Of a stretch of 64,000 bases of DNA, positions 54,984-55,795 are shown one piece after another. Position numbers and translations under genes: made by a program. The first letter of the stretch is position 1. Each line of letters opens with the position of its first letter. A model generated the notes under the pieces. It did no database searches and was not told where the DNA came from. It worked only from the letters and a program-made list of their open reading frames with translations. Source of the stretch: Chthoniobacterales bacterium (GTDB lineage Bacteria; Verrucomicrobiota; Verrucomicrobiia; Chthoniobacterales; UBA6821). The stretch lies in the NCBI GenBank assembly GCA_019747895.1, contig JAIEQF010000021.1:1207-65206 (forward strand), given 5' to 3'.

Positions 54984-55795
54984 ATGGATAAAATCATTTG
55001 CTTTGGAAAAAACTATCAAGATCACATGTTAGCCCGGATATTTCATACCCGTCTACTGCGACCTGCGGGAAGGCCGATGGATACTGCGTTAAACTTGAAT
55101 TTGGACTTGGGCGGTATGTACTCATACAGCTCAGCGTCAAAATTCAAGTTGTGCCTTGTCCCATCAGCCTTCGCACAGCGTCTCGTCACGAAGTGTATGA
55201 AATATTCGGGCTCGAGCTCGGTGATGCACCAGTGACGAAGCCGGTGATCTTTTTAAAACCCCCAAGTGTTCTCACAAAATGTCCGCACTGGAGAGAAACG
55301 ATACAGGTCAGTCTTCCCGATGAGGAAACACACTATGAATGCGAGTTGGTTCTGCAATTGAATAGAGGTGGCTACAAGATGACGCTGGAAGAAGCCGAGA
55401 GTGCGATTGGGGCTTATACCATTGGGTTGGACATGACATTAAGAGAAGTGCAGGGCCTTCTCAAAAAAAGGGGGCATCCATGGACCATCAGTAAAGTTTT
55501 CCCATCGGCCTGTATTATCGGCCCGTGGATTGAGGCTGCTGAGAGCGACTTTCTCGATACGCCATTTATGTTCAAATTAGATGGGATTGAAAAACAGCGG
55601 AGCTGTGGCAGAAAGATGTTGTTTCAGCCGAAAGAATTAATTGCTTATGCGAGTCAATTTTTTCCATTGTGCGAAGGCGATGTGATCTTCACAGGAACAC
55701 CGGCAGGCGTTAGGCCTGTTCATAAAAATTCCGTTGGCGTTTTAGCGCTGAACTCAACAGAAAGCGACTATCACTTTATGGTTGAGTGGCTGTAA
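54984..55795 (+). pseudogene. fumarylacetoacetate hydrolase (FAH) family gene interrupted by a 182-bp MITE
   Basis: ATG 54984 gives MDKIICFGKNYQDHM in frame A. After 55212 the FAH sequence resumes in another frame (ELGDAPVTKPVIFLKPPSVL...GDVIFTGTPAGV). Deleting 55031-55212 joins them as NYQDHMFELGDAPVTKPVIFLKP, a canonical FAH N-terminus. Confidence 0.8.
55031..55212. mobile_element. 182-bp palindromic MITE-like insertion
   Basis: 18-bp terminal inverted repeats agcccggatatttcatac / gtatgaaatattcgggct (1 mismatch). Further internal symmetry (aacttgaatttgg / caaaattcaagtt; gaaggccgatgg / cccatcagccttc). No coding capacity. No obvious target-site duplication. Confidence 0.8.

Follow-up and report, generated by a model that had tools for sequence, protein, structure and literature searches.

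A 64,000-nucleotide stretch of the Chthoniobacterales bacterium assembly GCA_019747895.1 (contig JAIEQF010000021.1, positions 1,207 to 65,206 of the forward strand), referred to below as the window, contains at positions 54984 to 55795 a gene of the FAH family that is split after its fifteenth codon by a palindromic element of 178 nt. Sequence comparisons identify this element as a miniature inverted-repeat transposable element (MITE), and the gene that it has entered has very probably lost its function. The initial annotation of this DNA had proposed an FAH-family gene that is interrupted by a MITE and returns to a canonical open reading frame (ORF) upon its clean removal, and both parts of this proposal were borne out. 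The restored ORF matches the Pfam profile FAA_hydrolase (PF01557) over profile positions 1-186 (E = 4.2e-41), whereas the interrupted downstream ORF covers only positions 29-186. The closest solved structures are those of E. coli YcgM (1nr9, E = 2.9e-34) and human FAHD1 (6fog). Room had been left for the segment being coding sequence in orthologous genes as well; it is carried by 0 of 122 homologues.

The element had originally been placed at 55031-55212, between perfect 18-bp terminal inverted repeats. Inverted repeats are present at these ends and match at 17 of 18 positions rather than perfectly (AGCCCGGATATTTCATAC versus AGCCCGAATATTTCATAC), and comparison with the family described below moves the core ends to 55033 and 55210 (178 nt), where they agree at 15 of 16 positions. 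The terminal 18-mer occurs twice in the 64-kb window, against 0.03 expected occurrences. The dyad symmetry that had been noted for 55031-55212 runs over the whole length, with inverted pairs (I1, I2 and I4) of which the shorter ones nest inside the terminal repeats. The single strand is predicted to form a long, imperfect hairpin with a folding energy of -89.4 kcal/mol (z = -9.54), a stability that 0 of 200 dinucleotide shuffles attained. At 178 nt the core lies below the limit of about 600 bp that is usual for MITEs. It codes for no transposase and contains no ORFs other than short read-through frames. A profile hidden Markov model (HMM) of the family, built from 59 copies of which none came from the window, matches 55033-55210 from end to end (E = 3.9e-37). 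It gave no second match in the 64-kb window, and blastn and a search with the terminal 18-mer likewise found one copy. Rfam 15 at its gathering threshold matched zero families anywhere in the window, and scans for promoters and terminators returned nothing above the shuffle background, with no promoter-like site within the element.

A search for empty sites in relatives, which had been suggested as a check, was successful. Intact genes without the element were found in three of them, namely L121 (92% amino acid identity and a near-identical upstream region), L128 (from the same 90%-identity cluster as P0001, the protein annotated at the window locus) and L001 (79%). All three read ...CAC/CAT ATG|CTCG|AGCTTGGTGAT at this point, that is, ATG|CTCG|AG. 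Compared with these relatives, the window has gained TTAG together with the 178-nt core, which amounts to 182 nt at 55029-55210. Removal of exactly this segment gives ...DHM-L-ELGD, the same sequence as in the homologues, with the conserved Leu16. The earlier proposal to remove 55031-55212 does restore an ORF of 630 nt or 209 codons (MDKIICFGKNYQDHMFELGD...) with an FAH N-terminus, but it leads to ...DHM-F-ELGD, in which Phe takes the place of Leu16. The observations that a segment of 182 nt is not divisible by 3 and shifts the frame, and that the upstream frame stops at 55235 (ORF 54852..55235), hold as originally made.

The nearest copies among the matches listed, L066 4022-4203 (96%) and L024 (92%), come from a verrucomicrobial metagenome-assembled genome (MAG) of Lac Pavin. 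Both have the same length as the window copy with zero indels, and the net length of 182 nt can therefore not be put down to a sequencing or assembly slip. These alignments mark the frame-breaking length as a trait of a 178-nt subfamily, of which the copies inspected, L066 and L024, are both intergenic. The window copy is entered in the canonical LARIFHT frame and left in the canonical YEIFG-L frame, and the two do not join because the right half of the core carries two extra bases.

The family was traced with the exact pattern GCCCGRATATTTCATAC in one genome per GTDB species, and copies were paired from the fetched loci. This search yielded at least 119 loci, mostly in MAGs of Verrucomicrobiota (Spartobacteria/Chthoniobacterales), with dozens of matches in single MAGs that are mostly intergenic, and 92-94 complete copies among the loci listed. 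The core of the family copies opens with CCCGGATATTTCATAC and closes with its complement, and its length has a mode of 176 nt (26 copies at 176, 10 at 177 and 9 at 178). The 4 nt on each side are nearly always CTAG, CTAA, TTAA or TTAG, and 48 of 92 copies carry the same 4-nt flank left and right, a number not reached in any of 2000 permutations. At the fourth flank position, left and right agree as G-G in 44 copies and as A-A in 32 and are discordant in 11. The family makes a 4-bp YTAR target-site duplication. A TA duplication of the IS630/mariner type is ruled out by the agreement at position 4, and flanks of the type CTAA...CTAA are accounted for by a 4-bp duplication but not by an inverted-repeat pair of the G...C/A...T kind. 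The family is apparently undescribed.

Two further observations were made on the arrangement of the copies. An apparent large element of 2.7 kb at L075 proved to be two separate copies on either side of a UvrD-like gene. Tandem MITE-MITE junctions with one shared YTAR occur at L036 2930-3386, L039 ~251-445, L043 ~1966-2160, L068 6499-6864 and L090 4455-4909, where it seems that the flanking duplication of an older copy served a newer one as its target.

A candidate for the mobilising enzyme is provided by insertion sequences (IS) of the IS1380 family. In six loci among those listed, the 16-nt MITE ends adjoin an IS1380-family transposase gene, and in L023, L091 and L104 they do so on both sides. 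The L023 element is complete, with 1801 bp and the flanks CTAG/CTAG, and those of L091 and L104 measure 1738 bp (TTAA/CCAG) and 1619 bp (CTAG/CTAG). The L023 transposase matches NCBIfam NF033539 with E = 1.6e-72 and Pfam PF13701 (DDE_Tnp_1_4) with E = 2.7e-97. Judged by these matches, the MITE and the IS1380-family elements have recognition ends in common, and we infer that an IS1380-type transposase moved the MITE family. An origin of the MITE by internal deletion of such an IS is not supported, as its likeness to the L023, L091 and L104 elements is confined to about 18 nt per end. The IS1380 family, which includes IS1247 and ISEcp1, resembles the MITE in having full-length elements of 1.6-1.8 kb with the same 16-nt ends and NF033539/PF13701 transposases, and differs from it in encoding a transposase and in all sequence beyond these ends. 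A 5-bp duplication has been reported for IS1247 (PMC3281130), as opposed to the 4-bp YTAR duplication in the MITE-associated IS lineage. No IS1380 transposase was found in the 64-kb window.

In the searchable literature no description of a link between MITEs and IS1380 was found; among the papers checked, those in which 'IS1380' and 'MITE' both occur leave the two unconnected, and a 2024 review of prokaryotic MITEs makes no mention of IS1380 (PMC10969869). The tie to IS1380-family transposases is one reason why the family merits attention. These 16-nt ends, some accompanied by an IS1380 transposase gene and others not, were also seen beyond Verrucomicrobiota, at L104 5042-6660 (a betaproteobacterial MAG) and in L013 (a Pseudomonadales chromosome), with further matches to the ends in Desulfobulbaceae, Omnitrophota, Planctomycetaceae and others. 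Because its ends occur well beyond Verrucomicrobiota, the IS lineage can be regarded as widespread, and the MITE body of about 178 nt is, going by the copies found, seen mainly in Verrucomicrobiota.

Family membership, the 4-bp target duplication of the family, the full-length IS partners and the three empty sites all bear out the initial reading as a MITE. Taken together, these comparisons mark the element as a non-autonomous transposon and a genuine insertion in the FAH gene. The course of events would have been the insertion of an IS1380-mobilised MITE into a YcgM/FAHD1-like FAH gene at its Leu16 codon. Its 178-nt core plus 4 nt adds 182 nt and causes a -1 shift, by which the conserved N-terminal strand and its motif (CFGKNYQDH) are cut off from the remainder of the enzyme. 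At codon 16 the insertion parts seven residues of at least 90% conservation, including H14, from E17, L18, G19 and D20, which follow directly after the element. H14 and E17 would correspond to the catalytic His30 and Glu33 of human FAHD1. In that case the element would lie within the catalytic dyad, where a copy that preserved the frame would probably do harm as well. Translation of the downstream part could begin only at chance start codons inside it, and the product would be devoid of the conserved N-terminal residues. Because of the frame shift, the early stop and the loss of these residues, the gene is most probably an insertionally inactivated and fairly recent pseudogene. The 214-aa call MBX9577849.1 ('FAH family protein', without a pseudogene flag) is considered an annotation artefact of the insertion. 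For this locus, the public annotation would have to be corrected, as it starts an FAH-family coding sequence (CDS) inside a transposon and the gene is most likely a pseudogene. The coordinates of the locus are collected in Table 1. That a MITE breaks a gene is an ordinary kind of event, and it is the MITE family itself that deserves follow-up, for its link to IS1380, its YTAR flanks, its 60-residue in-frame inserts and a possible piggyBac-like chemistry.

Table 1. Features of the interrupted FAH locus (window positions), copies of the MITE family read in frame in genes elsewhere (positions within the locus named) and further hairpin repeats of the window
Feature	Position	Strand	Remarks
FAH gene 5' fragment, codons 1-15 (MDKIICFGKNYQDHM)	54984..55028	+	seven columns of >=90% conservation: I4, C6, G8, K9, N10, Y11, H14
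Left 4-nt flank TTAG	55029..55032	+	fits family YTAR consensus; relatives have CTCG at the site; TTA = Leu in upstream frame
MITE core, 178 nt, predicted imperfect hairpin over whole length, 178-nt subfamily	55033..55210	.	fold, copy alignments, family HMM
Left terminal inverted repeat CCCGGATATTTCATAC	55033..55048	+	
Right terminal inverted repeat, reverse complement CCCGAATATTTCATAC	55195..55210	-	one mismatch to left arm
Right 4-nt flank CTCG, original target	55211..55214	+	relatives ATG|CTCG|AG; CTC = FAH Leu16
FAH gene 3' part, codons 16-209 and stop	55211..55795	+	-1 frame relative to 5' fragment
TGA terminating the upstream frame	55233..55235	+	23 nt past MITE core
CDS in public annotation, P0001 = MBX9577849.1, 214 aa	55151..55795	+	GTG start within MITE
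AGG codon, G183R	55712..55714	+	column Gly in 98% of 122 homologues, Arg in none
In-frame host: GlnD uridylyltransferase	L040 3871-4046		insert upstream of C-terminal ACT domain
In-frame host: HrpB-like helicase ORF	L119 3485-3660		insert = residues 10-69, may precede real start
In-frame host: amino-acid permease	L003 5691-5866		
In-frame copies in long ORFs	L030 747-922; L065 1176-1351; L042 2488-2663; L007 2312-2487		
Further hairpin repeats	13382-13536, 26036-26149, 41515-41653, 43620-43696; 42091-42174, 61971-62061, 63010-63091; 2195-2355, 15907-16089		

The FAH locus lies between two 'transposase-like' paralogues of the Rpn/PD-(D/E)XK type (53818-54714 and 56874-57782) that are nearly identical, and a piece from the 5' end of this gene (QFDWAIKTLLRHKANFPI) is found at ~54838-54895, directly upstream of the FAH start. 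In the relative L121/L130 the paralogue stands directly downstream of FAH, an arrangement that suggests local rearrangement. The MITE copy of L066 adjoins the same paralogue family.

Several observations weigh against an inactivated gene and a regular MITE insertion. The window copy lacks a matching target-site duplication, since the flanks disagree (left TTAG, right CTCG, with 2 of 4 positions equal), so that the classic MITE signature is, strictly speaking, not present at the FAH site. The window of 64 kb holds a single copy, and the source is apparently a MAG, so that some cells of the population may have the insertion and others not. The 3' part of the gene is free of stops and frameshifts over 194 codons. 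Two signs do point towards lost function, though they make weak evidence of decay. G183R in the GTPxGVG motif is the sole deviation among 68 conserved columns, and the dN/dS ratio is 0.23 against L121, compared with 0.117 in deeper comparisons with L001, a rise that hints at relaxed constraint without being significant. Finally, both the frame that enters the element and the one that leaves it are open, and the sequence alone would allow expression in some form.

Such expression is conceivable in two ways. One polypeptide could still be made through a -1 frame change or a hop within the element, which would give an FAH protein with an insert of about 60 residues. The entering (LARIFHT...) and exiting (...YEIFGL) frames are open through the entire element and are those used by in-frame copies in other genes, and the hairpin formed by the element would be very stable. 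Two open frames are, however, common in the family generally (25 of 62 copies of 160-190 nt, against 3.4 expected from shuffles), and no slippery heptamer of the form X_XXY_YYZ lies between 55029 (Leu16) and the stop at 55235. The sole heptamer, A_AAA_AAC at 55007, is located upstream, would destroy the NYQDH motif and is also present in intact relatives. An in-frame insert would still separate H14 from E17, and continued expression as one polypeptide is regarded as extremely unlikely. The other way would be a shorter functional protein that starts inside the element, namely the 214 aa from GTG 55151. This form is annotated by NCBI as an FAH-family protein, and the 3' ORF is intact, but it lacks Pfam profile positions 1-28 and the seven residues of at least 90% conservation including H14. 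No such N-terminus occurs in any of the 122 homologues and the interior of the element contains no promoter-like site in the scan, which makes this product very unlikely.

The insertion itself could be questioned as an assembly artefact, in which the MITE was misplaced or mis-sized by repeat misassembly, as the contig appears to be part of a MAG and repeats often cause misjoins. Against this stand the flanks, which are two halves of one gene that is contiguous and collinear in three relatives. The window copy also has substitutions of its own (96% identity to the nearest listed copy) and no indels compared with L066 and L024, and one copy in the window leaves little scope for a repeat-induced join, so that such an error is very improbable. 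Lastly, exact removal restores the ORF and the RNA would be highly structured, features that would also suit an intervening sequence that is lost from the RNA or from the protein (a group I or II intron, an intein or similar). An intein is excluded by the lack of a continuous frame, and Rfam gave no match at its gathering threshold. To our knowledge, 178-182 nt is below the size of the known self-splicing introns. A transposon is favoured by the inverted-repeat ends, the 4-bp duplications of the family, the dozens of copies per genome, most of them between genes, and the partners that carry a transposase, and an intervening sequence has next to no probability.

Beyond the FAH gene, the family shows a marked tendency to lie in frame within coding sequences. 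A 176-nt core with its 4-bp duplication adds 180 nt, and many such copies are read through as 60-residue inserts with the peptide L[AT]RIFHTD...YEISG-L in either orientation. A copy was counted as intragenic if each side of it has 40 or more open codons in the frame that reads the flank YTA as Leu, which applies to 22 of 94. The net length of these copies is divisible by 3 in 17 of 22 cases; among all others this holds for 28 of 72 (Fisher p = 0.003). Besides the hosts given in Table 1, these copies were found in a TMEM260-like glycosyltransferase and several ORFs of about 1000 residues, and some in-frame hosts have Pfam-confirmed domains on both sides of the insert. The earlier suggestion that only some insertions preserve the frame applies within the FAH element's own family (176 + 4 in frame, 178 + 4 not), but not in its original sense of a superfamily shared with the repeats in the lpxL and ogt genes of the window.

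A comparable lifestyle is known from the Rickettsia palindromic elements (RPEs), short palindromic repeats that often lie inside protein-coding genes, are read in frame and add a conserved peptide (PMC10969869). With about 100-180 bp they are like the MITE family in size, palindromy and in-frame gene inserts (about 60 residues here), but they show no sequence similarity to it and belong to a different phylum. Unlike RPEs, the MITE family has clear inverted repeats, a 4-bp YTAR duplication and IS1380 partners; we know of no recognised inverted-repeat/target-duplication signature and no transposase partner for RPEs. The family shows an RPE-like in-frame colonisation of real genes, here in free-living Verrucomicrobiota. 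The window copy itself is without this trait, as it adds 182 nt and causes a -1 shift. Other bacterial MITEs (Correia/NEMIS, ERIC, BOX and Nezha) also lie occasionally within genes and sometimes form in-frame fusions (PMC10969869). They share the short, inverted-repeat-bounded, many-copy form and differ in ends, target, hosts and inferred parent IS family. The target of Correia elements, for example, is TA.

The unequal flanks of the window copy can be polarised with the help of the empty sites. By this comparison, TTAG on the left is a canonical YTAR but not the target, and CTCG on the right is the original target. An ordinary staggered cut followed by fill-in would give CTCG on both sides, and a later change of CTCG to TTAG would take two specific substitutions in 4 nt, which is unlikely because the adjoining repeat arm has at most one change. 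The mismatch might be explained if the element took along 4 nt that had flanked it at its donor site and entered a non-canonical target with them, in the manner of piggyBac. An excised piggyBac element retains 4-nt 5' overhangs of the donor site, which pair with the staggered target. At a non-matching target such pairing would form a heteroduplex, and replication would then leave one donor-type and one target-type flank. By analogy, a piggyBac-like carry-over of the donor flank offers the best reading of the FAH flanks, albeit a tentative one, with one well-polarised case and weak family statistics behind it. Copies with two different YTAR flanks show no greater decay of their inverted repeats (1.73 mismatches, n = 15) than those with identical flanks (1.58, n = 48), although the numbers are too small to decide whether unequal flanks go with copy age.

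A relationship between the two systems has some background in the literature. IS1380 transposases are taken as the prokaryotic outgroup in piggyBac phylogenies (PMC10813416), and piggyBac targets TTAA with a 4-bp duplication, CTAA and TTAG being among its commonest non-canonical sites (PMC3983033). These sites resemble the YTAR set of the MITE family (TTAA, CTAA, TTAG and CTAG), and the YTAR preference fits an IS1380-piggyBac kinship. The piggyBac ends begin with CCC, and there the likeness to the MITE ends stops; moreover, the MITE family is bacterial and piggyBac eukaryotic. The chemistry of piggyBac (a transposon-end hairpin, a 4-nt 5' overhang and seamless excision) can be extended to the MITE family by analogy only. 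An excised element would then carry the 4-nt flanks of its donor site and integrate at YTAR without repair synthesis. It is possible, if somewhat doubtful, that the MITE family is a bacterial counterpart of the piggyBac elements, moved by IS1380 transposases with piggyBac-like chemistry. If so, this chemistry would permit seamless excision and make insertions in genes reversible. The 180-nt design (176 + 4) together with the preference for YTA as a Leu codon would explain the 60-residue in-frame inserts in many verrucomicrobial proteins, and the family would amount to an RPE-like phenomenon with an identifiable transposase. The asymmetric FAH flanks, at a site of known ancestral sequence, would offer a natural test case for synthesis-free cut-and-paste in bacterial relatives of piggyBac.

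The window contains additional palindromic repeats. A kinship between the FAH element and the repeats in the lpxL-like ORF (16872-17067) and the ogt-like ORF (42598-42715), which the initial annotation had hinted at, did not hold up, as blastn gave no match of the latter to the FAH element and the family HMM none at E <= 100 with filters off. The two repeats are 80% identical to each other over 83 nt, with a partial end at ~17230-17262, and their ends (AACTCGCTGCTGGC.../...GTCAGCAGTAGAGTT) are unlike those of the FAH MITE. The octamer TCTACTGC is common to the FAH element and these repeats, which by our own estimate is about chance level. On these comparisons the lpxL/ogt repeats make up a family separate from the FAH MITE, and both show an in-gene lifestyle. 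Further families of hairpin repeats in the window are represented by AATAGCCACAAAAGAACACAA..., CATAGGGGTCAGTCCTGCC... and arrays of CAGGTTACAGGTTGCAGG (Table 1), and palindromic repeats are unusually abundant in this genome.

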